From contig JAZRVP010000220.1 in NCBI GenBank assembly GCA_045599245.1, positions 590-64,589 of the forward strand: a stretch of 64,000 nt of DNA, in the 5' to 3' direction. The notes below the pieces were generated by a model. That model did not search any database. It was given only the letters and a program-made list of their open reading frames with translations, and had not been told where the DNA came from. Positions 34,836-51,940 of this stretch are shown here, in pieces. The position numbers and the translations under genes are program-made. Origin of the DNA: Myxococcota bacterium. GTDB lineage: Bacteria; Myxococcota_A; Bradymonadia; UBA4248. Each line of letters opens with the position of its first letter. The stretch's first letter is position 1.

Positions 34836-34861
34836 CCCGGGCCTTTGGCCCGGTTTTTTTT
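34836..34861 (+). terminator. Rho-independent terminator
   Basis: CCCGGGCC-TTT-GGCCCGG followed by T8. Confidence 0.75.
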
Positions 34862-34867
34862 GCGCCG

Positions 34868-34943
34868 TGTCGGCGCATTCGATGCGTATTCCGAAGGAAT
34901 AGCGTCGAATCAATGCAGGCGTATTGGCCGAAGGCCGATAGCC
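34868..34943. repeat. Cluster of REP-like palindromes (GCGTATTCCGAAGGAATAGCG; GCGTATTGGCCGAAGGCCGATAGCC)
   Basis: Same GCGTATyGGC...GCCGATAGC family as 11587-11645 and 19465-19522. Confidence 0.6.
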
Positions 34944-35079
34944 TGTGCGGTTTTGGGGTGTATTCGGGGCATCGAGATGCGCCGAATAGCCCCATCATCA
35001 AACGTCTGTCATTTTGCCATTGTTCTCATTTGGTGATAGAGACCGGAAGCAGGATTGTTTCTTTGTCAGAGAGAAAGTG

Positions 35080-37446: not shown

Positions 37447-37448
37447 GG

Positions 37449-37585
37449 AGTTACTACATAGTTGGGGCTTTGCTCCGAAACTCGCCGGGGTCTCTCTCCC
37501 GGCTCTCATCAATCTCTGCCTAAAAATTGCGAAATACGCCCTATTCAATAGAGATATATGAATTAACCCTGGCTGAGCAGTAAAG
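37449..37585 (+). repeat. Copy D of the mosaic intergenic repeat (short form)
   Basis: GAGTTACTACATAG..GGGGCTTTGCTCC..CTCATCAATCTCTGCCTAAAAATTGCGAAATACGCCCTATTCAATAGAGATATATGAATTAACCCTGGCTGAGCAGTAAAG. It ends ~100 bp before the 37686 start. Confidence 0.75.
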
Positions 37586-37685
37586 TATTTGAGTAGAAAA
37601 AGGCAAGAATGGGTGGTAAAGAATTGGAGAAACATGTTAAAATTGATGTGCTGAAATTTTGACGCATCATGAGGAGGATAGAGCG

Positions 37686-38555
37686 ATGCCATCGAGTTTG
37701 AACGACTCATTTAATAATCTTTCAAGATCGAGCAGTGATGTAGCGAGAATCCGTCGAGGGGCGAAAGGGCGTCCGGGCGCGGAGAGTGCGAAGAATCTGT
37801 TGGGCAGTATTCTGGATGATACGACGGAAGCGGCGGAGACAGAGCGTGTAGTCCGCGAAGAGAACGCGAAGCGTGCGGAAGAGGAAGCGCAGCGCCAGAA
37901 AGAGATGGCGGAAGAAGATGCGCGACTTCAGGCGGAACGGGAAATTATTGCGGAGAAGCAGGCGCAGGAAGATTTGAAGCTTCATCAGGCGGAGATGCAG
38001 GCGCAGCTGCAGCGTGAAAAGGATATCGAAGCCGGGATAATCAATCTTGAGGAAGAGGCTCGTCAGAAGCGAGAAGAAGAAGAGCGTCAGAGAGCGAAAG
38101 AAGAGGCGATCAAGCGCAAGACGGAAGCGAAGCTGCAGGCGATTGAGTTCAAGAAGAACCAGGAAACGGAACTTGAAGCGTTGCGTCAGGAGCAGCTAGC
38201 GAAAGAGGCGCAGCCGAAGAAATCGAATATGCCGAAGATTATTGCGGCGGCGGCAGCAGTTGTCATAGCGGGCGTTGTGGGATTAGTTTTTGCGTTGAAT
38301 CAGGAAGTGATCGATCCGTATGCGATGGGTGACGAAAAGAGTTATGAGACGCAAAGCATATCGTTTGTGAATGAAGACAACGGGATGATGAGTATTGCGA
38401 GGAATCTGGTTGTTCAGGCGCCGCCACCCAAGCCTGTGGCGAAGAAGAGCGGAGGCGGGAAGAAGAAAGGCGGCGGTGCAGCGCCGGCGGCGCCGATGCC
38501 GAAGCCGAGTCTGACCGGTGGAAAAGGTGGACTTTTTGGCAAAGGTAAGCTGTAA
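37686..38555 (+). CDS. Coiled-coil (E/K/R/Q-rich) single-pass membrane protein, Gly/Lys-rich C-terminus
   Basis: ATG 37686 follows the strong SD GAGGAGGA. ~170 aa of charged heptad-like sequence, then TM IIAAAAAVVIAGVVGLVFAL, then a C-terminal KKSGGGKKKGGGAAPAAP tail. A hairpin terminator lies at 38585-38615. Confidence 0.6.
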   Translation: MPSSLNDSFNNLSRSSSDVARIRRGAKGRPGAESAKNLLGSILDDTTEAAETERVVREENAKRAEEEAQRQKEMAEEDARLQAEREIIAEKQAQEDLKLHQAEMQAQLQREKDIEAGIINLEEEARQKREEEERQRAKEEAIKRKTEAKLQAIEFKKNQETELEALRQEQLAKEAQPKKSNMPKIIAAAAAVVIAGVVGLVFALNQEVIDPYAMGDEKSYETQSISFVNEDNGMMSIARNLVVQAPPPKPVAKKSGGGKKKGGGAAPAAPMPKPSLTGGKGGLFGKGKL

Positions 38556-38627
38556 TATCAGTGCCGAGTTAGAATATTCAACGAATGCCCTCGAAGTCAG
38601 AGGGCATTTGTCTGTTAGGAAAAGAAG

Positions 38628-40790
38628 ATGAAGAAAAGGTTTTCGGCAATCGTCTTGTCGTTGATGTTGAGTGCGATGGGAGTATCGCAGATTGGGTGTG
38701 TTGAAGCGGATGAACTTCCGACGGAACCGAATCAGCCGGGTATTGTTTTGACGACGAATGTACAGGACTGGCGCGATGAAGTGATATACCAGCTGATCGT
38801 TGATCGATTTAACAACGGCGATATCAACAATGACTATAACGTCGATACGCGGTCGATGGCGCGTTATCACGGAGGTGACTGGCAGGGGATTATCGACAAA
38901 CTCGATTATCTTCAGGACTTGGGGGTGACGACGTTGTGGATTTCGCCGCCGGTCAAGAACGTCGAAGAAGATGCGGGATTTGCATCGTATCACGGTTACT
39001 GGACGGTGGATTTCATCAAGCATAATCCGCACTTTGGAGATTTGGCGACGTTGCGGCGTCTGTCGGATGAACTGCATAAACGCGGGATGAAACTGATTCT
39101 CGATATTGTGACGAATCACGTTGGTCAGGTGTTTTTCTATGACATCAACATGAACGGGAGTGTCGAGGACTGGCTTGCCGGACGCGGGGATATTGATCGA
39201 GGATCGAATCGTACGGAGGCAGGAGAACTGAGCCGGGTGACGGAATACGATCCGGATTTTGATGCCCACGGAATAGATGCGTACACGAGCATGGGTATAT
39301 CGGGACAGGCACCGGCGGTATTTTTTGATATGCCGAATATCAACCGTATGGCGCCGGGGCCGAAGAATCTCGATTTGGATGGCGATGGCAAGATCACGAC
39401 GCCGGTGGAGAAGATGGGATTTTCGAATCCGAATTGGTACCATCAGCGCGGACGAACGTATTTTTATGGGAATGCGGCGCAGTCGTGTACTGAATTTTCG
39501 ACGGATAGGGATAAGGTCAAAAATGGGTGTACGAACTACGGGTCTGGGACGCCGACGTGCGGTGTGACGCATCAGTTGACGAATTATGACGGCACATCGG
39601 GCGGTTATCTCGATGGGACGGCGCGTATGTATTGTCAGAATGATCAGACGTTGCTGGGCGATTTCCCGGGCGGTCTGAAAGACGTGGCGACCGAGCGCGA
39701 GGATGTCCGCAAGGCGATGATCGAGGTGTTTTCGTACTGGATCGATGTGACGGACTGCGATGGTTTCCGCATTGATACATTAAAACATGTGGAATACTCG
39801 TTCTGGGAAGTCTTTGCTGCAGGTATCCGTGAACATGCCGCGAAACGAGGGAAAAAGAATTTCCTGATGTTTGGAGAGGCGTTTGACGGAAGCGATATTT
39901 TGCTCAAGAGCTATGTCGAGGATCCGAATTCTGTGGATTCAGTATTTTTGTTCTCACAGAAGTACGCGATTGATCAGTCGATCAAGTGTCCGCCGGGCAA
40001 TAGTGCGCCGTACTGCAAGAGCATGGACAATTCAGAGAACGGGACGAGTCCGTTGTATGGCTGGGATTACACGTGGTCAACGGGAGGCCGTCATGCACTC
40101 TTTAGCAATGAACCGAGGATAAACGGTGTGACGGACAGCCAGGGCAAGGGGGTTGCACCGCGCGATCTTCTCGTGAACTTCCTGGACAATCACGACGTGG
40201 GTCGATACCTGTTCGATCGAAGCGATGCGAAGGGGGTTGATTCATTAAAGAATGCGTTGTCATTCCTGATTTTACAGCGTGGTATACCGTGTATTTATTA
40301 CGGTACGGAACAGGGATATATGGGCGGGAACGATCCCGGCAACCGTGAGGATATGTGGGATCGAACGGCATCGTATTTTGTGAAAAATCCCGGTGTATAT
40401 GACAACTATGAAGCCTGGGATACGGGCAATCCGTTATATACCCATATCAAGAATCTGCTTCGCGTGAGGAAAGCGGTACCGGCACTTCGCCGAGGTGCGG
40501 TGAATGATGCGGTATGGCATTCAGGTGAGACGTCGGGGACAGAAGCTGGTATCTATGCGTTTTCGCGGACGTATGAAAACAGTTCTGCACTTATCGTTGT
40601 GAATACGCACGAGAGTCAGACGAGCAGCGGAAACGGGATGCAGGTTCCGTGGAGCAGTTCAACGCTGGTTGATTTGCTCGATCCGACGTACACAGCAACG
40701 GTTTCGGGTGGTCAGGTGAGTTTCAGTGTACCGCCGATGACGACGAGAATTCTCGTTCCGCAGGAAGACAAGGCGTCATACGGATTGTAA
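38628..40790 (+). CDS. GH13 alpha-amylase-family lipoprotein
   Basis: Lipoprotein signal MKKRFSAIVLSLMLSAMGVSQIGC. GH13 conserved regions DIVTNHV, GFRIDTLKHV, GEAFDG and FLDNHDVGR, with the catalytic Asp/Glu/Asp in the expected motifs. Confidence 0.85.
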   Translation: MKKRFSAIVLSLMLSAMGVSQIGCVEADELPTEPNQPGIVLTTNVQDWRDEVIYQLIVDRFNNGDINNDYNVDTRSMARYHGGDWQGIIDKLDYLQDLGVTTLWISPPVKNVEEDAGFASYHGYWTVDFIKHNPHFGDLATLRRLSDELHKRGMKLILDIVTNHVGQVFFYDINMNGSVEDWLAGRGDIDRGSNRTEAGELSRVTEYDPDFDAHGIDAYTSMGISGQAPAVFFDMPNINRMAPGPKNLDLDGDGKITTPVEKMGFSNPNWYHQRGRTYFYGNAAQSCTEFSTDRDKVKNGCTNYGSGTPTCGVTHQLTNYDGTSGGYLDGTARMYCQNDQTLLGDFPGGLKDVATEREDVRKAMIEVFSYWIDVTDCDGFRIDTLKHVEYSFWEVFAAGIREHAAKRGKKNFLMFGEAFDGSDILLKSYVEDPNSVDSVFLFSQKYAIDQSIKCPPGNSAPYCKSMDNSENGTSPLYGWDYTWSTGGRHALFSNEPRINGVTDSQGKGVAPRDLLVNFLDNHDVGRYLFDRSDAKGVDSLKNALSFLILQRGIPCIYYGTEQGYMGGNDPGNREDMWDRTASYFVKNPGVYDNYEAWDTGNPLYTHIKNLLRVRKAVPALRRGAVNDAVWHSGETSGTEAGIYAFSRTYENSSALIVVNTHESQTSSGNGMQVPWSSSTLVDLLDPTYTATVSGGQVSFSVPPMTTRILVPQEDKASYGL

Positions 40791-40850
40791 TAATTTATAA
40801 ATATATTTATGAGGAAATGGCTATGCGTTTTGCGCATACGCCATGGATGG

Positions 40851-40888
40851 AGCCGGGCTATGCAGAGCATACGCCCGGCTTTTTTTTT
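40851..40888 (+). terminator. Rho-independent terminator (preceded by a GCATACGC-type hairpin)
   Basis: GCCGGGC...GCCCGGC stem followed by T9. An upstream hairpin GGCTATGCG-TTTT-GCGCATACGCC lies at 40819-40842. Confidence 0.75.
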
Positions 40889-40972
40889 GGTGATTTGGAA
40901 TAAAATCGCTAAAATGAAAGGGGCTGGGCTTGAGTTGTCCGGCCTTTTGAACAGCTAAAAAAGGATGATGAA

Positions 40973-43900
40973 ATGAGAAACGGGAAAGTAGCCATTATTT
41001 GTGTGATATCATCACTTTTTGCAATGCAGTGTACGTTGGAATATCACGATTTGGGGATTGATTGTGAAGGCGTTCAGAGCATTCAGCTTTCGAGTGGCGG
41101 TGTTTGTTTGCCGGATGTATGTACGGGCTGTTCAAAAGATGACGAACAAAGCTGCAGTTCCTATAAAACAGAGGGAGCGTTTGCCCAAAATCGTTGTCCG
41201 CATGATTTTATGTGTACGACACTCGCGAATGGTAATGGTGCAAACTTCTGTATGCATAAGACAAAAGAGAGAGCATGTGGTGTTGATTTGCCCTATTTGT
41301 GCGGTGATTCGAAGAAATGTGCTTCAAGTTGTTCAAAATGTGAGGATAACGAAGAGTGCTATCTCATTATTAATATAGGGAATGACAAGAAGTCAGGTGC
41401 GAAAGAAGGGGCAGAGCAGGAGTGCAATATTGGTCAGCGCGAATGCAGTGAAGCCGGGAAGCTTCGTTTGTGCACCGCAGGTTCCTGGGAGACGATTGAT
41501 TGCGAGTCGGGGTGCAGTGATGGGAAATGTTTAGATGTGAGTGAGAGTGAATGTGAAGACGGTAAGCGCCGTTGTGAAGGGGATAAAGAGACACAGGCGT
41601 GTCAGGATGGGGAATGGAAGACGACGGGAACATGTCAGCGCGGATGTCTGGATGGGGAATGTACAGAAGAAAGCGACCCGGGTAAAAGTGGAGACGAGAA
41701 AGACGATGGGGGCGAAGACGATGGGGGCGATGAGAAAGGGGATGGCGGTGACAGTGGCGAAAAAGGTGAGACGGGATGCGGTGAAGGGGATGTTGGGTGC
41801 AATGGAGAAACTGTTGTAGAAATATGTCAATCTAAAGAATGGAAGAAGTTGAGTGAATGTGGTGAAAATCAAATATGCAGTGAAGGAGAATGTGTATTAC
41901 GAGAGGAAGTTGAGGACGGGAAATGTGAGAATAAGTTGAGGAGATGTCAGAATGATGTACCCCAGGAATGTGTAGAGGAAACGTGGGTAAGTGAAACGAA
42001 GTGCATGTATGGATGTGAAGATGGGTTTTGCAACGAGGAATGGATAGGCAAGGCGTGTGAAGAGAGCAGCTATCAGCAGACATGTATTAATGGAGGCATT
42101 CATGCGTTGGTGTGTGAGAATGGCGTGATTCGGAAACACCGATGTGCAGATGGGAATTGTTCTGTCAATCCGTCGAATCCACTTGAAATGATATGTCAGG
42201 AAGGATGTACGGCGGATTCCAAAGGGGAATGTGCTCCGGCATGTAATGCGGATGGGACGAAAGGGTATTATTGGAATCATACCAAATCGCCTGCATCGTT
42301 TGATTGTCCGAATGCGGATTGCAGAGTTGTGGATGGATTTGTGAGCTGTGGCCAGGAAAGCTGCAGTGCCAAGAGTAAGAATCGATGTATTCCGGCGTGT
42401 AGTGCGGATAAGAAAACGGGCTACTACATGAACGGTTCAAATAATATCAAGGCGAAGTCATGTCCCAATGGCGATTGTGTGTCGTACAAGGGGAATATTT
42501 ATTGCGGTATGCCGGAGGCGTGCACACGAGAGACGTACGAGCCGGAATGTACAGAAGATGGTACCGGGACGTATTGTTCAGCCGATGAAATTGTGAAGAC
42601 GTGGGGTTGCGGTGGTGGAGAAAAATGCCAGCTTCGGTTTGATGGAAGCTGTGATTTGTCGAGCCGATGTATTGATGGAAAGTACAATGTATCGGAATAT
42701 CCGAAAGGATTTATCGATTGTGTGAAAAATGATGAGTCGAAGGTTCCGGAGACTTGTAATCCGGAGCAAGACAAAGCGATGTGTGAGAATGGTCATGTGT
42801 ATGTATGTGGACAAAATGGTCGATATTATTTGAAAGAAACATGCAGTGCAAATCAGCGGTGTGAAGAAGGCCAATGCATCTATGAGAGCGTCCCGGAAAG
42901 CTGTAAATACGGCGAATCGGAGGCGATATGTGCAGGAGAGAGCAAGAACGAGCTTTATGTATGCGGGAATGACAATAAATATTACAAGAAGGTCGTTTGT
43001 CCGGATAGTCAGCCATGCAGAGTGAATAAAGGGTGGGGGCAGTGCATTGATGAATCGATACCGAAGGCGTGTGTGAAAGGAGATCCGGCCAAATGTGTGG
43101 GTTTGGATTTATATGTATGTTCGAAAGATGGATATTATTATTTAAAAGAAACGTGCAGTGAAACGAATCCATGTTTTGAGTCGAACGGATATGGCGGGTG
43201 TGAAGGGGCAGTTCTTCCCAATGGAGCGTTGTCGGATTGTGTATATGAAGGTGAGGGGGCGTCACCGGCGTTGTGTCTTGGTGAAGATAATTTGGACTTA
43301 TATGTTTGTGGTCAGAGCAATCGATATTATAAGAAAGAGCGATGTCCTGAGGGGACGGTGTGTCGTGTGAGCAATGGGTTTGGTCAATGTATTCCGCCGG
43401 AAGTTCCGGAAAGCTGTAAATATGGCAATTCGAATGTTATTTGTGCGGGGAATGCTATCTATGAATGCGGCAGGAATAATTGGTATTTGAAACATGAAGT
43501 ATGTGATGAGGGTGAAACATGTACCATTCATTCAACGGGAAAATCGGCCAGTTGTTTGAAAGCCGGAGTTCCGGGAGAATGCACAAATAGTGTTCATGCG
43601 ATATGTCAGGGACAGGATGTGTATGTTTGCGGGAAAAATGGCTGGTATTATTTGAACAAAACCTGTGCAGAGGGGGCAACGTGCAGTATTTCGGCATCAG
43701 GATTTGGTGACTGTCGTCTGTTTCCGTCTGATGTCAGTGGAACGTGCAGTATAGCCAAGTGTTCAACTGTTGATAAGAATGCGTATTTTTGTGATACCGA
43801 ATCGCATACCTATTATTTTGATATAGCTCATGGCACATGCAGTGAGGACAAACCGTGCAAGGTTTGCGGGAACGGGTATGCGGGCTGTGGCATCACGTGT

Positions 43901-44287
43901 AAAGATGAATTTCCGTCGGATATCAGTGGAACGTGCAGTATAGCCAAGTGTTCGACTGTTGATAAGAATGCGTATTTTTGTGATGAAAAGACGCACACCT
44001 ATTATTTTGATGCGTCTCATGGCGCATGCAGTGCGGACAAGCCGTGTAAAGTTTGTTCAAATGGCTATGCGGGCTGTGGCATCACGTGTAACGGAGAATT
44101 ACCGTCGGATATCAGTGGTACATGCAGTGTCGCCAAATGTTCAAATGTCGACCATAATGCGTATTTTTGTGATACCGAATTGCATACCTATTATTTTGAC
44201 AAAGCCCATGGCACATGCAGTGCGGACAAGCCGTGTAAGGTTTGTTCAAATGGCTATGCGGGATGTGGTATAACTTGTAAAGAATAA
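40973..44287 (+). CDS. Large Cys-rich repeat lipoprotein (paralogue family)
   Basis: Lipoprotein signal MRNGKVAIICVISSLFAMQC. The N-terminal ~130 aa are homologous to the N-terminus of the 47710 gene. Multiple ~36-aa modules (CNIGQRECSEAGKLRLCTAGSWETIDCESGCSDGKC). ~45-aa modules of type C..G...C.G...YVCG.NG.YYLKETC......C. Three near-identical 63-aa C-terminal repeats. Acidic Gly-rich linker DDGGEDDGGDEKGDGGDSG. Confidence 0.8.
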   Translation: MRNGKVAIICVISSLFAMQCTLEYHDLGIDCEGVQSIQLSSGGVCLPDVCTGCSKDDEQSCSSYKTEGAFAQNRCPHDFMCTTLANGNGANFCMHKTKERACGVDLPYLCGDSKKCASSCSKCEDNEECYLIINIGNDKKSGAKEGAEQECNIGQRECSEAGKLRLCTAGSWETIDCESGCSDGKCLDVSESECEDGKRRCEGDKETQACQDGEWKTTGTCQRGCLDGECTEESDPGKSGDEKDDGGEDDGGDEKGDGGDSGEKGETGCGEGDVGCNGETVVEICQSKEWKKLSECGENQICSEGECVLREEVEDGKCENKLRRCQNDVPQECVEETWVSETKCMYGCEDGFCNEEWIGKACEESSYQQTCINGGIHALVCENGVIRKHRCADGNCSVNPSNPLEMICQEGCTADSKGECAPACNADGTKGYYWNHTKSPASFDCPNADCRVVDGFVSCGQESCSAKSKNRCIPACSADKKTGYYMNGSNNIKAKSCPNGDCVSYKGNIYCGMPEACTRETYEPECTEDGTGTYCSADEIVKTWGCGGGEKCQLRFDGSCDLSSRCIDGKYNVSEYPKGFIDCVKNDESKVPETCNPEQDKAMCENGHVYVCGQNGRYYLKETCSANQRCEEGQCIYESVPESCKYGESEAICAGESKNELYVCGNDNKYYKKVVCPDSQPCRVNKGWGQCIDESIPKACVKGDPAKCVGLDLYVCSKDGYYYLKETCSETNPCFESNGYGGCEGAVLPNGALSDCVYEGEGASPALCLGEDNLDLYVCGQSNRYYKKERCPEGTVCRVSNGFGQCIPPEVPESCKYGNSNVICAGNAIYECGRNNWYLKHEVCDEGETCTIHSTGKSASCLKAGVPGECTNSVHAICQGQDVYVCGKNGWYYLNKTCAEGATCSISASGFGDCRLFPSDVSGTCSIAKCSTVDKNAYFCDTESHTYYFDIAHGTCSEDKPCKVCGNGYAGCGITCKDEFPSDISGTCSIAKCSTVDKNAYFCDEKTHTYYFDASHGACSADKPCKVCSNGYAGCGITCNGELPSDISGTCSVAKCSNVDHNAYFCDTELHTYYFDKAHGTCSADKPCKVCSNGYAGCGITCKE
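43721..44284 (+). repeat. Three tandem 189-bp near-identical repeats inside the 40973 gene
   Basis: Units at 43721-43909, 43910-44098 and 44099-44284. Each encodes FPSDISGTCSIAKCSTVDKNAYFCDTESHTYYFDIAHGTCSEDKPCKVCGNGYAGCGITCKDE, with >90% nt identity. Confidence 0.85.
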
Positions 44288-44316
44288 TGAAAGAACGCAG
44301 ACAAGGGATAAATATA

Positions 44317-47300
44317 ATGAGAAATAAACGCATTTCGATTTTGTTGTGTGGAATTGTTGCGGTGGGTATGACTTTAGGTTGTGCCAGTGATGTGAAGAAA
44401 TCCTGCAAATGGGATGTGTGCAGGGATTCGCAGACTTTATTGAAATGTGATGTATCGACGGGAGTTCAGACTGAGGAGGCCTGTAAAAATGGCTGTGACG
44501 GAGGAAAGTGTTTGCCGTCCGATTTGGAAAAATGTCAGTCAGATGAATGTAAAGATGTGAATACATTACTTAAATGTAATATAGTGACAGGGATTCGGAC
44601 TGAAGAAGTGTGTACAAATGGCTGTGATGGCGGAAAATGTAAAGAAAGTGTGAATGAAAAATGTACATCAGATGTATGTGAAAATGAAAAGGTGCTGCTT
44701 AAATGTGATATTTTGACGGGTATGCAGGTAGAAGAAACGTGTGAGAATGGGTGTGAAACCAGCCGATGCAAGCCGGCGGAAAAGGAAAAATGTACAGTAG
44801 ATGTATGTAAAAATGTCAGTACATTATTAAAGTGTAATGTCGATACGGGCGTTCAGACGGAAGAGGCGTGCAAGTATGGCTGTGATGGCGGAAAATGTAA
44901 ATCGAGTGAGAGCGATAAATGTACATTGGATGTGTGTAAAGACGATCGTTCATTGTTGAAGTGTAATATTGAGACAGGCGTTCAGACGGAAGAGGCGTGC
45001 AGGTACGGATGTGAAAATGGACGATGCAAATCGGCTGAAAAAGAAAAGTGTAAAACAGATGTTTGTAAAGATGTTAATACGTTACAAAAGTGTGATGTAG
45101 AAACGGGAGTGCAAACGGAAGAAATGTGTCAATATGGGTGTGATGGGGGCAAATGCAAGGATAAGCCAAAAGATGAGAAACATGAGGTGATGGATATTGC
45201 ACCATCCTTGAGCGGAAAGACCGGGGATGCACTTTATGATTATTTAGGCGCCACCCTCATCGACGAAGGTGTTGTTTTTGCCGTTTATGCCAAACATGCC
45301 ACTCGCCTTGAATTGTTGATATTTGATGATCCCGAAAGTGATCCGATAGAACGAATACCGATGAAAAAGGATGAAAATAGCGGGATATGGACAGTTTATA
45401 TCAAGGGTGCAAGTGTTGGATTGATGTATGGATACATTGCCTTTGGTCCAAACTGGCCATTTGATAAAGACTACAAACCGGGGACATTGAAAGGCTATAT
45501 TTCGGACTGTGATGCCGAAGGAAATCGATATAATCCCAACAAATTGCTGATAGATCCTTATGCGCGCCGCCTTCATGGAGAGTTTAAGTTTGAACTGGGA
45601 AGTCCATTGAGCGGGAGCGGCCGTGAGGAATGTGACTGGAAAGCGGCGCCGAAATCGGTGGTGACAAAAAGTGAATATGTTTGGAGTAAATCCGAGACAA
45701 CATGGCGAGAAAACCGGAAGAAAGGTGACGGATTTTCGGGTCATGGCGCGAACAGCATGATTTTGTATGAAGTTCATCCCAAAGGTTTTACACAGAATGC
45801 GAATGACCTGGATGCATCATTGAGAGGAACGTGGCAGGGGATAGGCGAAAAGGCACAGTATCTGGCGGAACTTGGTGTTACAGCGGTTGAATTGTTGCCT
45901 GTGGCAGAGAAAAACGTGGATGGAACCTACTGGGGATATGATTCGATCGCGTATTTTGCCCCTGAAATGTCATATTCAATGAAAGATAATCAGAAAAAGG
46001 ACAGCGGTGTCATCGACGAATTTAAGGGAATGGTTGATAAACTGCATCAGGCAGGGATCGAAGTCATTCTCGATGTTGTGTATGGCCAGACGGGGGAAGG
46101 GGGATTTTGGCCCGATAAACTGCTTGGGAGCAATTATTCGTATCCAGCCATTGAGGGGGCATCGGACTACAGTGCATTGGCGCACTATTCCTTCCGTGGG
46201 CTGGACAATAAATCGTATTATCATCTGGTCAAAGGAGAACAGCAGGGAAGTGAGAATCGGTATTATCTGAACGAGACAGGGGTTGGCGTCCAGACGAGAG
46301 CCAATGCGATGCCGTTTCGACGGTTGATCATGGACAATCTTCATTATTGGTCTGAAGAAATGCATGTCGATGGCTTCAGGATTGATCTTGCCTCGGTATT
46401 GGGAGTGTTGGATGAACAGATTGATCAGAATGGAGACACGAAGAATTTTGATAATGGATACTGGATGTCGAATGTCGGCAAGACGGTGCTTCAGGATATG
46501 ATTGATGATAAGCGATTATCGGCTTATCATACGAGGATTATTGCGGAACCGTGGTCTGGGTCGCATTATGTCATCGGTGGATTTCCGAAGTCGAGTGATG
46601 GCAAGTCAGGCTGGTATGAATGGAATGGGCGGTTTCGCGACAGCGTGAAGGCATTTGTGAATGATGATGGATATACATTGTCGAAAACAGAGGCGGTACC
46701 TCCGAGTTGGAACGAGATGTATAATCTGGGCAATGCATTTTCGGGATCGTCGGTGTTGTTTGGAGATGATGGACGTAAGCCGTATCATTCGATAAATTAT
46801 ATTACATCACACGATGGATTTACGATGTATGACTTGATGTCATATTGGAATAAGCAGAATCATTGCAGCAAGCTCAATTCGTATTGTTGTGAACATTCGA
46901 GCCAGTTATTTTGCAGTTTAGACAGCGGATCAAATGATAATCGTTCGAGGAACTGGTGTCAGAAGGACTGTAATGATGATGGATGTAATGAGAATGTCGA
47001 TACCGATGGCAGATGTAAAGATAATGATCATGAGGCATTAAAGCGTCAGATGATAAGGAATGCGATGGCCGTGATGATGTTGAGTCAGGGGACGCCGATG
47101 TTGTTGGGCGGAGATGAATATATGAGGACGCAGTATGGCAATAATGATGCGTTTTCGAATGCTTCGGACAATGAATGGAACTGGTTTAGATGGGAAGATT
47201 GGGGCAAGAGTGCGGAACAAGTGCGAATGCATGATTATGTGAGGGATTTGATAAAGATAAGGAAACAATATCAGATGTATTTGGCGCCGACAGATTATAA

Positions 47301-47595
47301 TTCGCCGATACAGTGGTGGTTTCCGAAGGATGTTTCGGATAATAGCGGTTGGGAAGGGAAAGCTGTTGGTATGTATTATCCCGGAACAAATAATGCCAAA
47401 AACTTGTATATTTTGTTTAACATGGAGAGTGTTGACAAAACGTTTGCAGTACCTGAAGGGGAATATGAAGTATTGTTAGATACACAGTCATATTTTGAAC
47501 AGGAAAACGGCAGGAACACGTGGTTTGACGGAAGTCGCAAGACCAGTCAGGAATATACGGTTAAATCTCATTCGATTGTTGTCATGTCAAAATAA
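44317..47595 (+). CDS. GlgX/isoamylase-type GH13 debranching enzyme fused to eight N-terminal Cys-rich modules
   Basis: Start ATG 44317 (MRNKRISILLCGIVAVGMTLGCAS lipoprotein signal). Eight ~36-aa repeats CKWDVCRDSQTLLKCDVSTGVQTEEACKNGCDGGKC. Then GlgX-type motifs: VFAVYAKHATRLELLIF (N-domain), KLLIDPYARRLHG, GIEVILDVVY, MHVDGFRIDLASVLG, AEPW, YITSHDGFTMYD, GGDEYMRTQ. A Cys/Asp-rich insertion sits between the last two regions. A hairpin terminator lies at 47596-47650. Confidence 0.85.
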   Translation: MRNKRISILLCGIVAVGMTLGCASDVKKSCKWDVCRDSQTLLKCDVSTGVQTEEACKNGCDGGKCLPSDLEKCQSDECKDVNTLLKCNIVTGIRTEEVCTNGCDGGKCKESVNEKCTSDVCENEKVLLKCDILTGMQVEETCENGCETSRCKPAEKEKCTVDVCKNVSTLLKCNVDTGVQTEEACKYGCDGGKCKSSESDKCTLDVCKDDRSLLKCNIETGVQTEEACRYGCENGRCKSAEKEKCKTDVCKDVNTLQKCDVETGVQTEEMCQYGCDGGKCKDKPKDEKHEVMDIAPSLSGKTGDALYDYLGATLIDEGVVFAVYAKHATRLELLIFDDPESDPIERIPMKKDENSGIWTVYIKGASVGLMYGYIAFGPNWPFDKDYKPGTLKGYISDCDAEGNRYNPNKLLIDPYARRLHGEFKFELGSPLSGSGREECDWKAAPKSVVTKSEYVWSKSETTWRENRKKGDGFSGHGANSMILYEVHPKGFTQNANDLDASLRGTWQGIGEKAQYLAELGVTAVELLPVAEKNVDGTYWGYDSIAYFAPEMSYSMKDNQKKDSGVIDEFKGMVDKLHQAGIEVILDVVYGQTGEGGFWPDKLLGSNYSYPAIEGASDYSALAHYSFRGLDNKSYYHLVKGEQQGSENRYYLNETGVGVQTRANAMPFRRLIMDNLHYWSEEMHVDGFRIDLASVLGVLDEQIDQNGDTKNFDNGYWMSNVGKTVLQDMIDDKRLSAYHTRIIAEPWSGSHYVIGGFPKSSDGKSGWYEWNGRFRDSVKAFVNDDGYTLSKTEAVPPSWNEMYNLGNAFSGSSVLFGDDGRKPYHSINYITSHDGFTMYDLMSYWNKQNHCSKLNSYCCEHSSQLFCSLDSGSNDNRSRNWCQKDCNDDGCNENVDTDGRCKDNDHEALKRQMIRNAMAVMMLSQGTPMLLGGDEYMRTQYGNNDAFSNASDNEWNWFRWEDWGKSAEQVRMHDYVRDLIKIRKQYQMYLAPTDYNSPIQWWFPKDVSDNSGWEGKAVGMYYPGTNNAKNLYILFNMESVDKTFAVPEGEYEVLLDTQSYFEQENGRNTWFDGSRKTSQEYTVKSHSIVVMSK

Positions 47596-47709
47596 AAGTG
47601 CCGGTATTACTTGCGAATGCAAGTTATTTGGTACGGCACTGTGTCTTGAAGTGCCAATATAATAAAATTCATCACAATGGCTGTTTAACAAAACGAGGCA
47701 AAGGCGGAA

Positions 47710-49347
47710 ATGAGCGATAGAAGATCAATTGTTTTATGTGGAATGATGGCATCATTGGTCTTGACATCGAGTTGTACACTTGAATTTAATGATCTCGGAT
47801 ACGATTGTATTGGGGTAAAGAGTATTCAATTGGCGGATGGTGGGTTATGTACGGAGACGACATGTGAGGGATGCAAGAAAGGTGACCGAAACAGTTGTGA
47901 ATCGTACCGAAGTGAGGGCGCTTTTAAGCGTGGTCGATGTCCGCATGACTTTTCGTGTGCAATGAAAAAAGGAGAATTGTCAGAGAATATATGTCTTCAC
48001 ACGGCGGATATGAGTCGATGTGAACCAGAATATGAAGTGTTGTGCGATTTGCGATGTGCATCATCGTGCAGCAAGTGTGAAGACAAAGAAACATGTTATG
48101 TGAATTTAACGCAGGTTGAACCGAAACCGGTTGAAGAAAAGGAGTGTAGAACGGGTGAACGACAATGTGGTGAAAAAGAGAGTGTAGAAATATGTATCAA
48201 TGGAAAGTGGAAGGCGATGGCACAATGTGTTGGGGTGTGTGAGGAAGGAAGTTGTGTGATTCCGAATACGGTTGAACAGTGTGGTGAAAAAGTGACGAAT
48301 TGTACATCACAGTCCGGTTGGAAAGGAGGTGAATGTTTGGATGGAGTCTGTGTCGCGCAAAAGTGTAAGGCAGGTTATCATGTCGAAGAAGGAAAGTGTG
48401 TGGTTGACACGTTGACAAAGTGTGGGGAGAAAATAATAGATTGTACGAGTAATGACGGTTGGGAAGATGGGGAATGTGCGGAAGGCTCCTGTGTCGCGCA
48501 AAAGTGCCAGGTGTGGTATCATGTTGAAGACAATAAATGTATGGAAGATACAGTCATAAAGTGTGGAGAAGAATTAAAAGACTGCATGACACTGGCTGGC
48601 TGGGAAGATGGGGAATGTGTTGAAGGCTCCTGCATGGCAACGGCATGTGAAGCAGATTTTAAGTTAAAAGATGGTGTTTGTGAGGAAAATACAGTTAATA
48701 TGGTGGATGAAAACCATATAGAATTTGGTCGATATGAACAGGATAACAACCTGGAAAATGGCGCGGAGCCGATATTATGGCGTGTATTAAAACAGGAAGA
48801 AGATAGATATTTATTATTGAGTGAATATTCATTATTGGGAATGAGATTTTATGAAACGCATACGGATGTGACATGGGAAACGAGTACATTGCGTTCGTGG
48901 CTAAACGGCTATGATGGCAGTAAAAATGCGATGAATACGGATTATACGACGGATAATTTTATTCATTCGGCATTTAGCGAATCGGAATTGCAGATGGTTG
49001 AGGAAACGACGATGGAAAGTGAATGTAATGGAACCGTGGATAAAGTCTTTTTATTGAGCAGGTCACAGGTGGAAACATTAATTCCGAATGCAGCGGATCG
49101 AGTTTCAAAGGCGACGCCGTATGCGACAACGACGAAGGGCGGCAACGGGACGGCATGTGGTGAAGAACGATGCACATGGTGGTGGTTATGTTCTCCAGGT
49201 GAGGCACATTCATCAGGGCACGAAGTGGATGCAAGTTCGGGGGCAGTCAATACATGGCCATTTGTGAATGAACCAGATTATGTTCGTCCGGCAATATGGT
49301 TAAAGGCTGTTGTGAAGGCAAAGAGTGAAGTCGAAAGCGACACGTGA
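47710..49347 (+). CDS. Cys-rich lipoprotein with C-terminal conserved extracellular domain of unknown function
   Basis: Signal MSDRRSIVLCGMMASLVLTSSC. The N-terminal domain is paralogous to 40973 (LEFNDLGYDCIGVKSIQLADGGLC...RCPHDF...CASSCSKCEDKETCY). Cys-rich modules C.EG.C....C...YHVE..KC. The C-terminal ~200 aa carry motifs ILWRVL, WETSTLRSWLN, AFSESE and KVFLLS. I recall these from a widespread uncharacterised extracellular domain but cannot name it with certainty. Confidence 0.75.
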   Translation: MSDRRSIVLCGMMASLVLTSSCTLEFNDLGYDCIGVKSIQLADGGLCTETTCEGCKKGDRNSCESYRSEGAFKRGRCPHDFSCAMKKGELSENICLHTADMSRCEPEYEVLCDLRCASSCSKCEDKETCYVNLTQVEPKPVEEKECRTGERQCGEKESVEICINGKWKAMAQCVGVCEEGSCVIPNTVEQCGEKVTNCTSQSGWKGGECLDGVCVAQKCKAGYHVEEGKCVVDTLTKCGEKIIDCTSNDGWEDGECAEGSCVAQKCQVWYHVEDNKCMEDTVIKCGEELKDCMTLAGWEDGECVEGSCMATACEADFKLKDGVCEENTVNMVDENHIEFGRYEQDNNLENGAEPILWRVLKQEEDRYLLLSEYSLLGMRFYETHTDVTWETSTLRSWLNGYDGSKNAMNTDYTTDNFIHSAFSESELQMVEETTMESECNGTVDKVFLLSRSQVETLIPNAADRVSKATPYATTTKGGNGTACGEERCTWWWLCSPGEAHSSGHEVDASSGAVNTWPFVNEPDYVRPAIWLKAVVKAKSEVESDT

Positions 49348-49492
49348 TGTGAAGGATATTCAAAAAAGGAAGTGCCGCTGTATTGAGCGATAGCGAGATA
49401 GGCGGCACGGCACTGCGTATGCCAATAGCAGTGCTTTCCAGATATAAAAAAGGCCGCCACGAAGGCAGCCATAAAAAGTAAAAGAGAAAGAA

Positions 49493-49678
49493 TTAAGCCT
49501 GCTGACTATTTTTCTTCATATTTTCGAAAAAAGCGAGGGAACGAGTCCAGAGAGCTTCTTGTTCTTCGTGAGATTTCTTATCATCCCTGCTTTCTTTTTT
49601 AGGTGTAAGACTGAGAAGTGGTTGAAGTTCGTCTGTGGAGTATTTATTAGAAACTTTTTGAGTATCAAAATCTGCCAT
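49493..49678 (-). CDS. Small hypothetical protein (61 aa) downstream of the histidine kinase
   Basis: ATG 49676-49678 with a near-consensus SD AAGGAGAGG 6 nt upstream. Hydrophilic and charged (MADFDTQKVSNKYSTDELQPLLSLTPKKESRDDKKSHEEQEALWTRSLAFFENMKKNSQQA). No homology recognised. Confidence 0.45.
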   Translation of the reverse strand: MADFDTQKVSNKYSTDELQPLLSLTPKKESRDDKKSHEEQEALWTRSLAFFENMKKNSQQA

Positions 49679-49776
49679 GAATCCTCTCCTTGAGGTGTAT
49701 GATATACCCAACATCCCCCCCGGAACAAGCATAATACCTACATGTGGCTAGATGTCCAATTTTTTTTATAAAAAAA

Positions 49777-51615
49777 TCAATCCAAAGGCAGATGAATGAT
49801 AAACGAAGTGCCATGAGGGATGAGATTGATGCATTCGATCGTGGCGTGATGTTCATCCATGATTTTTTTAACAATGGCGAGTCCGAGTCCGGTTCCGCCG
49901 CGTTTACCATAAGTAACGAATTCATTAAAAAGCGTATTGGAAATGGCTTTAGGAATGCCCGGGCCATCATCACTAATGGTGAGAATGGCGGAAGTGTTAT
50001 TTGTATCCGTTGCAATAGTGATATTACCGTCGGTATCAATTGCTTCGATGGCATTTCTGATAAGATTGACACAAACTCTTAATAATTTATCAAAATCGTA
50101 TGGGATTTTAGATGTAAATTCGTCAGAAAATGATAATTTAATATTTCTTTTTTGAGCTTCCGGGGTGAGCAGGTCGATGGCTTGAATGATGACATCGTGC
50201 AAAGGTGCAGGTTTGAGTATGATTGCGGATTCGCCTTTTGCATATTGCATGATTTCAGAACTCATATTTTTAAGAGAATTGAGTTGTCGATCGATGACTT
50301 CGGCGAATTGAGCGCGTTTATCGGGGTCATCTTGAATGACCATCATTTCTGAATAACCGGAAATATTAGCCAGAGGCGTTTTCATATCGTGCATGAGATT
50401 TGAGAGCATTTTTCCGATCATTGAGAGGCGTTGTTTTTTCTCATTTTCATCGCGATTCATCTGGGTATGCAGAGCGGATGCGATATTTGCGGCGAAAAGA
50501 AGGGCAAGCTTTTTATTATTAAAGAAGAGAGATGGATTTGTAATTTGCGAACCAAGAATGAGAGAACCGATATGTGTATCATTATGAGAAAGCGGAATGA
50601 CGAGGAGTGCATTAAGTGGAATATTGAATGAATTTTCGGTGAGTTCAGGGAGCGTTTCGAGATCGCGAATAGAGAGAGACAGACCATCAATCGGTAGAAT
50701 TTTCGGGATAAATGAAGGCATATTATCGATCGATATCTTTTTACATTCATCGAGCGTTGTCATATTGAAGCGAACAATTTCGGATTCATTATATATAAGA
50801 ATGGCTGCAAATTGTGTATTAAATGCACTGAAACAATGATTAAGCATTCGTTTGATGAGCGTGTCGAGGTTCATGGCGACAGCGGCATCGCGTTCGAGTG
50901 CATAGAGGCGATCGAGTTCTTCATTTTTTTGTTGAAGCAGATGTCTTGCCTCAAGGAGTTCTTCGTTTTTATCATTTAGAGAGGCAATAAAAGCGTGCTG
51001 AGTGAGGCTGACGCCGATTTGAGAGCTGATTGAAGCGATCATTCCTTCGTCATTTACGTCGAAGGGACCGTTGATTTTATTGATAACCTGAACGACGCCG
51101 AGCAGTTCATTTTGAATATTCAGAATGGGCATGGCGAGGCAGGAGCGCGTGACGAAACCGCTTTTCTTATCGAAAGATGGGTCGAAAAGACTGCATTGAT
51201 AGACGTTTTCGATATTGAGGAGTTGTCTTTTTTGTGCGACGGTTCCTGCGATTCCCTGGCCAAATTTGAGTCGAATGCCGTCGGATTTTTCGGCGATAAA
51301 TGAAGAGAGTGTTGGTTCGTCCGAGTTGTCGTGATCGACGAGAAAAATGGTGGAACGTTCGGCTCTCATGAGCTGTGTCGTTTTGTCGCAGATTGTGCTG
51401 AGGACTGTGTCGAGACTGGCATTTGACCCGATGAGAGACGCAATTTTGAGAAAAGCGGAGAGCTGTTCCTGCATTCTGGCAAAGCGTTCGAAGTCTCCGG
51501 AATGATTGACTGCATTGAGTGAAATCCAGGAATCACGTTGAGTGACAGCGGACATTTCACCGGAATCATCGCGAGTAAGAAGCTGTCGAAAAATAAAAGT
51601 CGAATCGGATGTCAT
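49777..51615 (-). CDS. Cytoplasmic GAF-domain sensor histidine kinase
   Basis: ATG 51613-51615 follows SD GGAGGTGA. No TM segments. Two GAF-like regions. HisKA H-box LSNLMHDMKTPLANISGYSEMM. HATPase_c N/G1/G2 boxes IRNAIEAI, DDGPGI, GGTGLGLAIV. No response regulator lies adjacent. Confidence 0.85.
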   Translation of the reverse strand: MTSDSTFIFRQLLTRDDSGEMSAVTQRDSWISLNAVNHSGDFERFARMQEQLSAFLKIASLIGSNASLDTVLSTICDKTTQLMRAERSTIFLVDHDNSDEPTLSSFIAEKSDGIRLKFGQGIAGTVAQKRQLLNIENVYQCSLFDPSFDKKSGFVTRSCLAMPILNIQNELLGVVQVINKINGPFDVNDEGMIASISSQIGVSLTQHAFIASLNDKNEELLEARHLLQQKNEELDRLYALERDAAVAMNLDTLIKRMLNHCFSAFNTQFAAILIYNESEIVRFNMTTLDECKKISIDNMPSFIPKILPIDGLSLSIRDLETLPELTENSFNIPLNALLVIPLSHNDTHIGSLILGSQITNPSLFFNNKKLALLFAANIASALHTQMNRDENEKKQRLSMIGKMLSNLMHDMKTPLANISGYSEMMVIQDDPDKRAQFAEVIDRQLNSLKNMSSEIMQYAKGESAIILKPAPLHDVIIQAIDLLTPEAQKRNIKLSFSDEFTSKIPYDFDKLLRVCVNLIRNAIEAIDTDGNITIATDTNNTSAILTISDDGPGIPKAISNTLFNEFVTYGKRGGTGLGLAIVKKIMDEHHATIECINLIPHGTSFIIHLPLD

Positions 51616-51769
51616 AATGCTCACCTCCAGTCTGAATGTAGAGTATCTGAAAAAGTGAGAAAAAGGAATTGTATAGTCGTTAGTGAAGAACTGTTTATTT
51701 GTTTTTTCCGGGGCTCTGCCTCAATTCCCACCCCGTTTTTCCTCATTTGTTGGTTTCAATTATTGTTTT

Positions 51770-51910
51770 GTTTAGAGCTTTCTCAGGGAAGGTCTGAATA
51801 AAACGATATTTTTAGGCAGAAATAAAAGAGAGCCGGGGATGAGGCCCCGGCTGGGAATCATGGTTAGGCAGCCCAAAAGGCTTATATCACCTTAGGAATC
51901 CTCACCGGAG
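51770..51910 (-). repeat. Partial copy F of the mosaic repeat (minus orientation)
   Basis: The reverse complement reads GATTCCTAAGGTGATATAAGCCTTTTGGGCTGCCTAACCATGATTCCCAGCCGGGGCCTCATCCCCGGCTCTCTTTTATTTCTGCCTAAAAATATCGTTTTATTCAGACCTTCCC. This is homologous to the middle of copy B and to the tail of copy G. Confidence 0.6.
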
Positions 51911-51940
51911 CATGAATAAGGTGAGAGGTTGCTTGCGATA

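Follow-up and report, generated by a model that had tools for sequence, protein, structure and literature searches.

Two GH13 enzymes and two Cys-rich putative lipoproteins are encoded side by side in the window, a 64,000-nucleotide stretch of Myxococcota DNA, which raises the question of whether the four genes form a dedicated alpha-glucan locus and whether the Cys-rich module among their products binds alpha-glucans. The genes lie on the forward strand in the order GH13 alpha-amylase (38628 to 40790; 720 amino acids [aa]), 1104-aa Cys-rich putative lipoprotein (40973 to 44287; 11.4% Cys), isoamylase/GlgX-type GH13 debranching lipoprotein (44287 to 47595; 1102 aa from the first ATG), and 545-aa Cys-rich lipoprotein (47710 to 49347; 8.1% Cys). 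The intergenic gaps are 182 nt, -1 nt (29 nt if the isoamylase starts at 44317), and 114 nt, and the four same-strand reading frames with short gaps described in the original prediction matched exactly in their coordinates. The gene identities were likewise borne out, by Pfam and NCBIfam matches and by Cys content. A gene for a 676-aa Cys-rich lipoprotein (10.9% Cys) is located elsewhere in the window on the reverse strand (15359 to 17389). All five proteins have a signal peptide with a terminal Cys. Three of the lipoboxes are canonical, namely MTLGC in the isoamylase, VVGC in the 676-aa protein, and TSSC in the 545-aa protein, whereas those of the amylase (QIGC) and the 1104-aa protein (AMQC) are atypical. 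The window also encodes HydF, which hints at an anaerobic lifestyle.

The amylase matched PF00128 (E = 3.4e-55), its best PDB matches were Anoxybacillus-type and TAKA alpha-amylases (E = 1.7e-57), and GH13 regions I to IV were legible in its translation as LDIVTNHVG, GFRIDTLKH, FGEAF, and FLDNHD. No Cys-rich modules were found in the amylase, the signal peptide of which ends in SQIGC. Directly 3′ of the gene, an intrinsic-terminator-like hairpin followed by T9 was present on the forward strand (40849 to 40889), with an RNA folding energy of -30.5 kcal/mol (z = -5.9) that was equalled by 0 of 200 shuffles. The hairpin and T tract suggest that the amylase gene is separated from the next gene.

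The isoamylase matched TIGR02100 (glgX_debranch) with an E value of 4.8e-126 and a score of 421 bits, under the 640.9-bit equivalog cut-off. Its best PDB match was the Pseudomonas isoamylase 1BF2 (E = 2.8e-87, full-length alignment), and E. coli GlgX also aligned full-length (E = 1e-58). A start at 44317 (MRNKRIS…MTLGC, 1092 aa) seems likelier than one at 44287, and 44317 corresponds to the start of the gene in the closest relative, L008. On the forward strand, six tandem type-A modules (44404 to 45156) separate the lipid-anchor Cys from the catalytic core and are followed by a CBM48 isoamylase N-terminal domain (45244 to 45564; PF02922, E = 2.6e-12), GH13 region I (46069 to 46092), and GH13 regions II to IV (GFRIDLA, AEPW, and TSHD; 46372 to 46815) with an intact catalytic Asp/Glu/Asp. 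Region I reads LDVVYGQT instead of the family LDVVYNHT, as indicated by the 1BF2 alignment and a motif table. A Cys-rich insert containing 8 Cys follows region IV (46864 to 47022) and is a family-wide feature, as an insert with 4 to 14 Cys was found in every relative for which the flanking motifs were located (47 of 73). Thus, the enzyme has CBM48 and a GH13 core with the Asp/Glu/Asp triad in common with the secreted Pseudomonas amyloderamosa isoamylase (1BF2) and GlgX/TreX but differs from them in its predicted lipid anchor, its six-module N-terminal array, its Cys-rich insert, and its region I Gly-Gln. A Cys-rich insert in the catalytic domain across the family fits an oxidising, extracytoplasmic location. 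We conclude that an extracytoplasmic location of both GH13 enzymes is supported by signal peptides that finish in a lipobox-like motif and by the conserved Cys-rich inserts of the isoamylase family.

The claimed fusion of modules to a debranching enzyme is real and is retained across a whole isoamylase clade. All 11 module-bearing isoamylases fell in one clade, and all 11 replace the region I Asn-His with Gly-Gln, whereas 62 of 62 module-less relatives keep Asn-His. The module-less Myxococcota lipoprotein isoamylases (~800 to 900 aa; P0194-P0261, "glycogen debranching protein"), with catalytic regions 43 to 58% identical among listed relatives, resemble the window enzyme in having a signal peptide that ends in Cys and the Cys-rich insert, but N-terminal modules are absent, including from the sister clades. 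Within the module-bearing clade, the N-terminal extension varies: at one extreme, a single module sits behind a long Pro/Gln/Asp-rich linker, and at the other there are seven modules. Close relatives differ in carrying 6, 5, and 4 copies. Such varying module number is the pattern expected of tethers. We conclude that the module-bearing isoamylases are a single, newly recognized clade defined throughout by Gly-Gln in place of Asn-His in region I.

The isoamylase array spans aa 40 to 290 with a period of 43 aa (129 nt at the DNA level), in which modules of 36 aa from Cys to Cys are joined by 7-aa Lys/Glu/Ser linkers. Each module was matched by HMM at an E value of 1e-17 to 1e-19, far above chance, and the count was six rather than the eight originally proposed. 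The motif as first written, C-x3-4-C-x-D-x2-TLLKC-x9-10-C-x2-GC-x3-C, gave zero matches, the true spacing being C-x4-C-x8-C-x9-11-C-x3-C-x4-C. Within the window proteins, this TLLKC form (type A) is limited to the isoamylase (six copies) and the 676-aa protein, where its predicted presence was confirmed as three copies (16913 to 17296, reverse strand; A1 matches, E = 1e-17 to 1e-18). Type B has an invariant Trp and the spacing C-x6-C-x7-8-C-x4-W-x5-6-C-x3-C-x4-C and was found four times in the 1104-aa protein, once in the 545-aa protein, and two to three times in the 676-aa protein, all of which contain further Cys-rich module types. Comparison of the two profiles with hhalign showed that types A and B are homologous (probability 94.8%, E = 5e-8). 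The proposal that one module is common to all of the Cys-rich proteins was therefore correct in that related forms occur across them but not in that the TLLKC form is confined to two. The module superfamily has three or more types, among them A, B, and a Tyr-rich form. Between the isoamylase array and that of L008, dN/dS was 0.18, or 0.21 when Cys codons were excluded, indicating purifying selection at non-Cys positions. A TG-x-x-T-E-type hairpin motif is kept in most A modules of the closest module-bearing homologues; an aromatic residue ahead of the GC motif (Y/F/W-G-C) is common, and aromatic residues are entirely missing from several type-A copies.

The 1104-aa protein had no Pfam or NCBIfam match and is built wholly of modules as judged by translation and HMM matches. 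On the forward strand, its N-terminal 112-aa Cys-rich head (41030 to 41365) has a paralogue in the head of the 545-aa protein (47773 to 48108; BLASTP 51% identity, E = 3e-38). The head is followed by four type-B modules interrupted by an acidic Gly/Asp/Glu linker (41423 to 42031; A4 profile, E = 2.5e-18 and 4.1e-16), approximately seven Tyr-rich modules of the third type (…YVCG-x4-YY-x-K-x2-C…; 42755 to 43717; translation and weak A4 matches), and, at the C terminus, a Cys/Tyr-rich unit of 63 aa repeated three times in tandem (43721 to 44287; Tandem Repeats Finder period 189, 3.0 copies, 83% matches). The 545-aa protein continues, also on the forward strand, with a single type-B module (48145 to 48255; A4 match, E = 1.3e-6), 47-aa CGEK…GW…GYH repeats (48271 to 48684; tandem period 141), and a C-terminal DUF6273 (48802 to 49305; PF19789, E = 3.2e-16). 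The 676-aa protein has two type-B modules on the reverse strand (16658 to 16885; A4 match, E = 1.8e-21), one more type-B module, and Tyr-rich modules. The Tyr-rich type is also found in homologues of the 676-aa protein, and the homologues P0002-P0008 have the identical order of A-array then B-array. We infer that the module lipoproteins are located in the envelope and are disulfide bonded.

An HMM search of Pfam and NCBIfam, proposed with the original prediction, returned no known domain and a real family, and the module had no match to Pfam, NCBIfam, or PDB sequences even at E ≤ 10. An exhaustive module-profile search found 143 matching clusters among 1.84 billion cluster representatives. The matches were mostly Cys-rich lipoproteins, most at 10 to 13% Cys; ~60% satisfied a strict pattern for an N-terminal lipobox, and in most others the signal peptide likewise ended in Cys. 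The few that were named were hypothetical proteins of Bradymonadia, Myxococcales, or unclassified "Proteobacteria" MAGs. EGF-like domains, fibronectin type I spacer arrays, and the Myxococcus cysteine-rich repeat (DUF4215) differ from the module in Cys pattern, and none had a Pfam match in the module proteins. AlphaFold2 modeling, likewise proposed, gave confident models, in which each module is predicted to be a five-strand all-beta knot (type A, mean pLDDT 85.7, five short strands; type B, pLDDT 88.3, topology in common with type A). A Foldseek search with the module model found nothing, and the sole structural neighbors, from both independent models, were sub-threshold chitin binders of the CBM14/peritrophin-A/tachycitin type (Der p 23, Blo t 12, chitotriosidase CBM14, Avr4, and EHEP). 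CBM14 modules are mainly eukaryotic. CBM14 is unlike the module in Cys spacing, and its profile, PF01607, gave no match at E ≤ 10; the original view that the module resembles no classical CBM thus stood at the sequence level but not entirely at the fold level. We conclude from these searches that the module family is novel and lineage restricted.

One way in which the four genes could be related is as a dedicated surface apparatus for capturing starch or glycogen, in which the amylase and isoamylase would assemble with the 1104-aa and 545-aa proteins as scaffolds or receptors. The genes are indeed close and on the same strand, the flanking proteins have heads that are 51% identical, and at most 29 nt separate the 1104-aa gene from the isoamylase gene. 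Moreover, L008 (87% nucleotide identity) keeps the end of the 1104-aa gene, the isoamylase gene, and the 545-aa gene, but it alone does so. L002, with an amylase 70% identical to that of the window, keeps the upstream genes for a GYF protein, a kinase, and a 298-aa protein in conserved synteny with the amylase but lacks the three-gene block, and the more distant module-bearing isoamylases on contigs L001, L004, L005, and L007 have unrelated neighbors. GC content drops from ~0.52 to ~0.43-0.46 across the block, suggesting a separate history, and a strong terminator precedes it. The logic of lipid-anchored glycoside hydrolases with noncatalytic, repeat-built envelope proteins is similar to that of Sus in Bacteroidota and of cellulosome scaffoldins, but SusC/SusD, cohesin, and dockerin were absent among the 25 window proteins scanned, the gene set is unconserved, and the module extends beyond carbohydrate-active enzymes. 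The claimed four-gene locus is neither conserved nor a single transcription unit, and we consider an apparatus of this kind very improbable. The 1104-aa/isoamylase/545-aa block is best explained as a young, lineage-specific cluster adjoining a separately terminated amylase gene, and at least its first two genes are probably cotranscribed.

A second way to account for the array is as a new CBM family for alpha-glucans, six copies of which would provide multivalent glycogen or starch binding beside CBM48. Consistent with glucan binding, the isoamylase fusion is kept clade-wide (1 to 7 or more copies per enzyme), module gain coincides with the region I change, selection extends beyond Cys, the aromatic residue ahead of the GC motif is common, and the weak fold neighbors bind chitin. 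Strong profile matches, however, carry a peptidoglycan hydrolase domain (Peptidase_M23 in P0039 and Amidase_2 in P0050), an EEP nuclease (P0041 and P0067), F5/8C (P0026), or DUF6273 (P0017), and whole lipoproteins without any enzyme domain, some of them large, are made of the superfamily. Such diverse partners indicate that the module is not tied to alpha-glucan. Moreover, the adjoining amylase is free of modules, several type-A copies lack an aromatic, we know of no starch-binding CBM among the CAZy families that resembles the module, and none of the 143 matches had a GH13 domain, although the representative library hides fusions when a cluster representative lacks modules, such that GH13 fusions were missed and the partner census is incomplete. 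The alpha-glucan CBM is distinctly unlikely, and dedicated glucan binding is less likely than a generic role. As a further candidate, the module could be a general adhesin for glycans or cell surfaces, with peptidoglycan, chitin-like glycans, or mucin as example ligands. It would attach secreted hydrolases, and lipoproteins made of modules alone, to prey cells or to host/dietary particles, the isoamylase being one cargo enzyme among several in a predatory or scavenging lifestyle. Cultured members of the Bradymonadia/Myxococcota are predators, the named matches come from MAGs of these groups, and the partner domains mostly attack bacterial cells, with SpoIID and CHAP among the weaker matches. 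The enzyme-free proteins and the CBM14-like neighbors also fit, but the structural similarity is sub-threshold, the module is unrelated in sequence to CBM14, LysM, PG_binding, and other known binders, and predation by this uncultured lineage is an assumption. We regard the adhesin as unlikely.

The best explanation overall, which we give an even chance of being right, is that of two extracytoplasmic GH13 enzymes, a module array serving as a generic stalk or scaffold, and a young block beside a terminated amylase gene. A pure spacer would not obviously explain why an entire isoamylase clade retains modules that its sister clades lack, nor the selection at non-Cys positions, the kept hairpin motif, the carbohydrate-binding CBM14 neighbors, or the richness of the flanking 1104-aa protein in Tyr-containing modules. 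In addition, a run of three module proteins exceeds chance expectation; no unqueried ORF with a module was found in 97 kb of relatives' loci. Nonetheless, the module looks more like a general-purpose envelope stalk or adhesin than a starch-specific domain. On the stalk reading, an uncultured Bradymonadia-like Myxococcota bacterium would produce an extracytoplasmic alpha-amylase and an isoamylase-type debranching lipoprotein. The isoamylase modules, each all-beta in fold and with six Cys that presumably pair into three disulfides, may form a stiff, disulfide-stabilized beads-on-a-string stalk or a presentation/adhesion scaffold. Such a stalk would hold the hydrolase domain off the membrane, in the periplasm, at the cell surface, or on vesicles.

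The four same-strand open reading frames of the original prediction were recovered with exactly the coordinates that it gave and encode a GH13 alpha-amylase (38628-40790, plus strand), a 1104-amino-acid (aa) protein (40973-44287), a debranching enzyme here called the isoamylase (44287-47595) and a 545-aa protein (47710-49347); a 676-aa protein is encoded on the minus strand at 15359-17389. The amylase matched PF00128 (E 3.4e-55), its best solved relatives were the Anoxybacillus-type and TAKA amylases (PDB match E 1.7e-57), and its translation contained DIVTNH, GFRIDTLKH, GEAF and NHD, which supply GH13 regions I to IV and the Asp/Glu/Asp triad. The isoamylase contained a CBM48 domain (PF02922, E 2.6e-12) followed by a GH13 domain (PF00128, E 1e-16), kept the catalytic Asp of region II, Glu of region III and Asp of region IV (GFRIDLA, AEPW and SHD) and aligned over its full length with the secreted isoamylase of Pseudomonas amyloderamosa (1BF2, E 2.8e-87), better than with TreX or GlgX. 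It scored 421.5 bits against the glgX_debranch model TIGR02100, the curated cut-off of which is 640.9, and is thus a relative within the family and not an equivalog of the cytoplasmic GlgX. We conclude that both enzymes belong to known families.

The 1104-aa, 545-aa and 676-aa proteins contain 8 to 11% Cys, and their only Pfam or NCBIfam match was to DUF6273, at the C terminus of the 545-aa protein. An N-terminal Cys-rich head of 112 aa is shared by the 1104-aa and 545-aa proteins and is 51% identical between them. All five proteins begin with a signal peptide ending in Cys. When a lipobox was defined as a signal peptide ending in [LVI][ASTVI][GAS]C, canonical forms were found in the isoamylase (MTLGC), the 676-aa protein (VVGC) and the 545-aa protein (TSSC; ITSGC in L008, a relative's contig with 87% nucleotide identity), and those of the amylase (QIGC) and the 1104-aa protein (AMQC) were atypical. 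The first ATG of the isoamylase frame (44287) shares 1 nt with the stop codon of the gene before it. The L008 isoamylase begins at the position equivalent to 44317, and a start there gives an ordinary lipoprotein signal peptide (MRNKRIS…MTLGC). Two DsbA/thioredoxin-fold proteins are encoded in the same 64 kb (5906-8035, minus strand; 61145-61993, plus strand) and fit a high need for disulfide formation; a tandem pair of tRNA-Ala(GGC) genes, separated by 4 nt, lies at 8042-8194. Near the gene for the 676-aa protein are a tRNA-Gln(TTG) gene (18999-19072) and a gene for HydF, the [FeFe]-hydrogenase maturation GTPase (17676-18959, plus strand), which hints at an anaerobic lifestyle.

The isoamylase carries six N-terminal modules (aa 40 to 290), not the eight first counted, each 36 aa from Cys to Cys with a period of 43 aa, or 129 nt in the DNA. 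The module motif as originally written matched nothing as a regular expression, because two of its spacings were off by one. Nor is one module common to all of the Cys-rich proteins in the form proposed. The "TLLKC" form, type A, occurs only in the isoamylase (six copies) and the 676-aa protein (three copies), and the 1104-aa and 545-aa proteins contain type B, which is marked by an invariant Trp (four copies and one copy, respectively, with two to three more in the 676-aa protein). Profile-profile comparison indicated that types A and B are homologous (probability 94.8%). A third, Tyr-rich type (…YVCG-x4-YY…) is present in about seven copies in the C-terminal half of the 1104-aa protein (42755-44287), together with three 63-aa repeats that are 83% identical at the DNA level, and the aromatic-rich surfaces of these modules might bind glycans.

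AlphaFold2 models built from array alignments were confident for the individual modules (pLDDT of 85.7 for type A and 88.3 for type B) and predicted a common five-strand, all-beta topology; their low pTM is as expected for beads on a string. Between the window and L008, which has lost exactly one module, dN/dS was 0.18 over the modules, 0.21 when Cys codons were left out and 0.13 over the catalytic part, which indicates purifying selection on the modules. The HMM E-values, the confident models and the purifying selection ruled out the repeats being a compositional artefact. Another Cys-containing repeat protein of the window, a secreted 1107-aa protein (11718-15041, minus strand), combines DUF11 with a Myxococcus cysteine-rich repeat (DUF4215) and numerous calcium-binding repeats of the bacterial TSP3 type. 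A hydrophobic stretch and an Arg-rich tail close the protein at its C terminus, and its Cys repeats are of another family than the modules studied here.

The claim that the module resembles neither a classical carbohydrate-binding module (CBM) nor an EGF domain held up in the sequence libraries, as Pfam (2025 copy), NCBIfam (2026) and PDB sequences returned nothing meaningful. Isolated arrays searched against Pfam at E ≤ 10 gave only noise (BRCT, GILT and a below-cut-off CBM_19 at E 0.09) and no match to the CBM14/peritrophin-A profile PF01607, the six-Cys spacing of which also differs from that of the module, a phmmer search of the array against the PDB found no match, and Foldseek found nothing significant for the module models in the PDB. 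JGI metagenome scans with the isoamylase and with the shared head domain were likewise without a match. A word-seeded search with the six-module array, in a database lacking the window's own proteins, yielded one weak match (P0001). An exhaustive HMMER search of 1.84 billion cluster representatives with the type-A profile yielded only 143 proteins at E ≤ 1e-3, of which 56 reached E ≤ 1e-10. Most of the 143 contain 10 to 13% Cys, about 60% match a strict pattern for an N-terminal lipobox, and the majority of the others also have a signal peptide ending in Cys. Those that carry a name are all "hypothetical protein" save an Amidase_2 fusion called after its amidase, and the labeled sources are metagenome-assembled genomes (MAGs) assigned to Bradymonadia, Myxococcales or unclassified "Proteobacteria"; the closest genome match of the isoamylase was also a Myxococcota MAG. 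Literature on Cys-rich proteins and lipoproteins of Bradymonadia and on disulfide-rich CBMs of isoamylases did not describe the module. The characterized Myxococcus isoamylase MIsA was rejected as a member of the same family, as this 712-aa enzyme clusters with GlgX/TreX and has no reported Cys-rich module array (PMC11544908). The arrangement, in which small, disulfide-rich repeat modules of extracellular type are attached to a known enzyme, is known in kind. As far as the searched libraries and literature show, the module superfamily itself is undescribed.

The partners of the module did not bear out a tie to alpha-glucan enzymes. Many of the 143 proteins consist of modules only, in a stereotyped order of A array, B array and Tyr-rich modules. 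Strong matches with a region that is not Cys-rich contained Peptidase_M23 (P0039), Amidase_2 (P0050), F5/8 type C (P0026), DUF6273 (P0017) or endonuclease/exonuclease/phosphatase domains (P0041 and P0067), and weaker matches added SpoIID, CHAP and PG_binding_1. A GH13 domain was found in none of the 143, because a library of representatives hides any fusion whose 50% cluster has a representative without modules. Given such varied partners, we conclude that the module is not specific to alpha-glucan enzymes.

Searching with the catalytic region of the isoamylase retrieved many Myxococcota lipoprotein isoamylases of about 800 to 900 aa and fewer with N-terminal extensions. Region I of GH13 enzymes normally contains Asn-His (DVVYNHT), the His of which contacts the −1 glucose. 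The window isoamylase reads LDVVYGQT in place of LDVVYNHT (46069-46092, aa 595 to 602) and so lacks the Asn-His pair. DVVYGQT or a close variant was present in all 11 module-bearing sequences (including the window protein and database matches P0190 to P0193, P0224, P0226, P0227, P0232 and P0233) and in none of 62 module-less relatives, all of which had Asn-His. The 11 formed one clade in a neighbor-joining tree, in which region II tends to FR[IV]D, not FRFD, and the catalytic Asp/Glu/Asp is retained. Their N-terminal extensions vary between a single module set behind a long linker rich in Pro, Gln and Asp and as many as seven modules, with six, five and four copies among close relatives. Wherever the flanking motifs could be located (47 of 73 relatives), region IV is followed by a Cys-rich insert with 4 to 14 Cys, which fits an oxidizing, extracytoplasmic location. 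The coupling of module gain with the change from Asn-His to Gly-Gln is new.

The four genes did not behave as the single locus that had been proposed, or as an operon, as a strong terminator lies within them and their order is kept only in L008. The gaps are short as claimed between the 1104-aa and isoamylase genes (at most 29 nt), but a strong hairpin resembling an intrinsic terminator (40849-40889; −30.5 kcal/mol, z = −5.9, with nine T after it), although not called by a consensus terminator scanner, lies directly behind the amylase gene and separates it from the 1104-aa gene. A hairpin 3′ of the isoamylase gene is weaker and has no T tract, and an Rfam scan of 37000-50500 gave no match. Gene order in the window from 33180 to 40790 is kept in relative L002 (15276-21792), where a GYF/zinc-ribbon protein, a Ser/Thr kinase, a 298-aa Glu/Lys-rich membrane protein and the amylase are 57 to 75% identical to their counterparts (the amylase 70%) and the genes beyond the amylase differ. 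The amylase is therefore part of the kinase-side block and not of the Cys-rich block. Module-bearing isoamylases on contigs L001, L004, L005/L006 and L007 have unrelated neighbors and no adjoining amylase or module protein; only L008 retains the end of the 1104-aa gene, the isoamylase gene and the 545-aa gene. Over the block, GC content drops to 0.43-0.46 from a level of about 0.52. From the terminator, the relatives' synteny and the fall in GC, we conclude that the three-gene block is real but young and that the amylase belongs to a different, older neighborhood.

Several further features were observed around these genes. GC content is 0.42 to 0.46 over 42000-52000 and 0.51 to 0.55 on the flanks, and is already about 0.48 at the start of the 1104-aa gene (40973); the low-GC stretch spans most of the Cys-rich/isoamylase block and a convergent gene for a GAF histidine kinase (49777-51624). 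Over 26000-56000, GC skew has very high positive values (0.17 to 0.36 per 2 kb), on genes of both strands alike, and suggests an unusually strong replication-strand asymmetry. At 51941-55036 (minus strand), a 1031-aa protein has an N-terminal VIT domain, a central Met/Pro/Gly-rich repeat and a C-terminal DUF2135. The Ser/Thr kinase (35014-37446) carries a C-terminal array of 25-aa repeats (36380-36845, 75-nt period, MPNGYE…RVPVRSR…MPS). A 429-aa antisense frame within the amylase gene (38283-39572, minus strand) matches L002 opposite the conserved amylase gene and is thus most likely no gene; a 356-aa antisense frame within the kinase gene (35930-37000, minus strand) has no L002 match and was judged non-coding by position and composition alone. 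In L002, just 2.3 kb separates the gene for a homolog of the 676-aa lipoprotein (10001-12970) from the amylase gene (15276-17438); the two are convergent, with an M24 peptidase gene and a 208-aa frame between them. The window genes are 21 kb apart.

The best-supported reading, to which we give about an even chance, is that the modules are a lineage-specific, disulfide-stabilized building block of envelope lipoproteins, which in the isoamylase would act as a stalk or presentation scaffold between lipid anchor and catalytic core. Some binding role is favored by the retention of modules throughout the clade, by selection on positions other than Cys, by a hairpin motif (TG-x-x-T-E) that recurs in most A modules of the closest homologs, by the Tyr-rich modules of the adjoining protein and by a predicted fold with sub-threshold structural resemblance to CBM14. 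That role might be that of a general glycan or cell-surface adhesin, which we consider somewhat unlikely. An alpha-glucan-specific CBM draws on the same observations and is unlikely, as the partner domains are diverse, the amylase is without modules and synteny is not conserved.

The four proteins were originally likened to a Sus- or cellulosome-type system, and a dedicated capture apparatus of this kind is very doubtful; the analogy failed in that no SusC (TonB-dependent transporter)/SusD pair was present among 25 window proteins scanned with Pfam, and none of the five proteins had a Pfam match to cohesin or dockerin. That the module proteins adjoin by chance, as members of a large paralogous family, is only partly tenable, as no unqueried frame with a module was found in 97 kb of relatives' loci. 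Combining several of these ideas, the modules might form a new disulfide-knotted fold of bacteria that binds carbohydrates and is either convergent with CBM14 or a very distant relative of it. The type-A array would then provide multivalent attachment to glycogen or starch, module gain would accompany a remodeled −1 subsite and the flanking head-domain lipoproteins would be co-receptors, in a Myxococcota-specific envelope system harvesting alpha-glucans such as glycogen of lysed prey or dietary starch. This joint proposal is quite unlikely.

The finding changes no major paradigm, and the proposed function of the module remains putative. The module defines an unannotated domain superfamily, a family model of which would name proteins that are now all "hypothetical", and which accounts for a visible part of the envelope lipoproteins observed on contigs from an uncultured, Bradymonadia-like lineage. 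The analysis also identifies a distinct clade of predicted lipid-anchored isoamylases, in which acquisition of the module array and replacement of a near-invariant Asn-His by Gly-Gln go together without exception, a clean natural experiment on the role of the region I His and on the effect of appended modules on debranching-enzyme behavior. If the modules bind glycans, they would constitute a new CBM family, usable as small disulfide-stabilized affinity tags; if they are stalks, they would be a bacterial counterpart of EGF-like spacer arrays.
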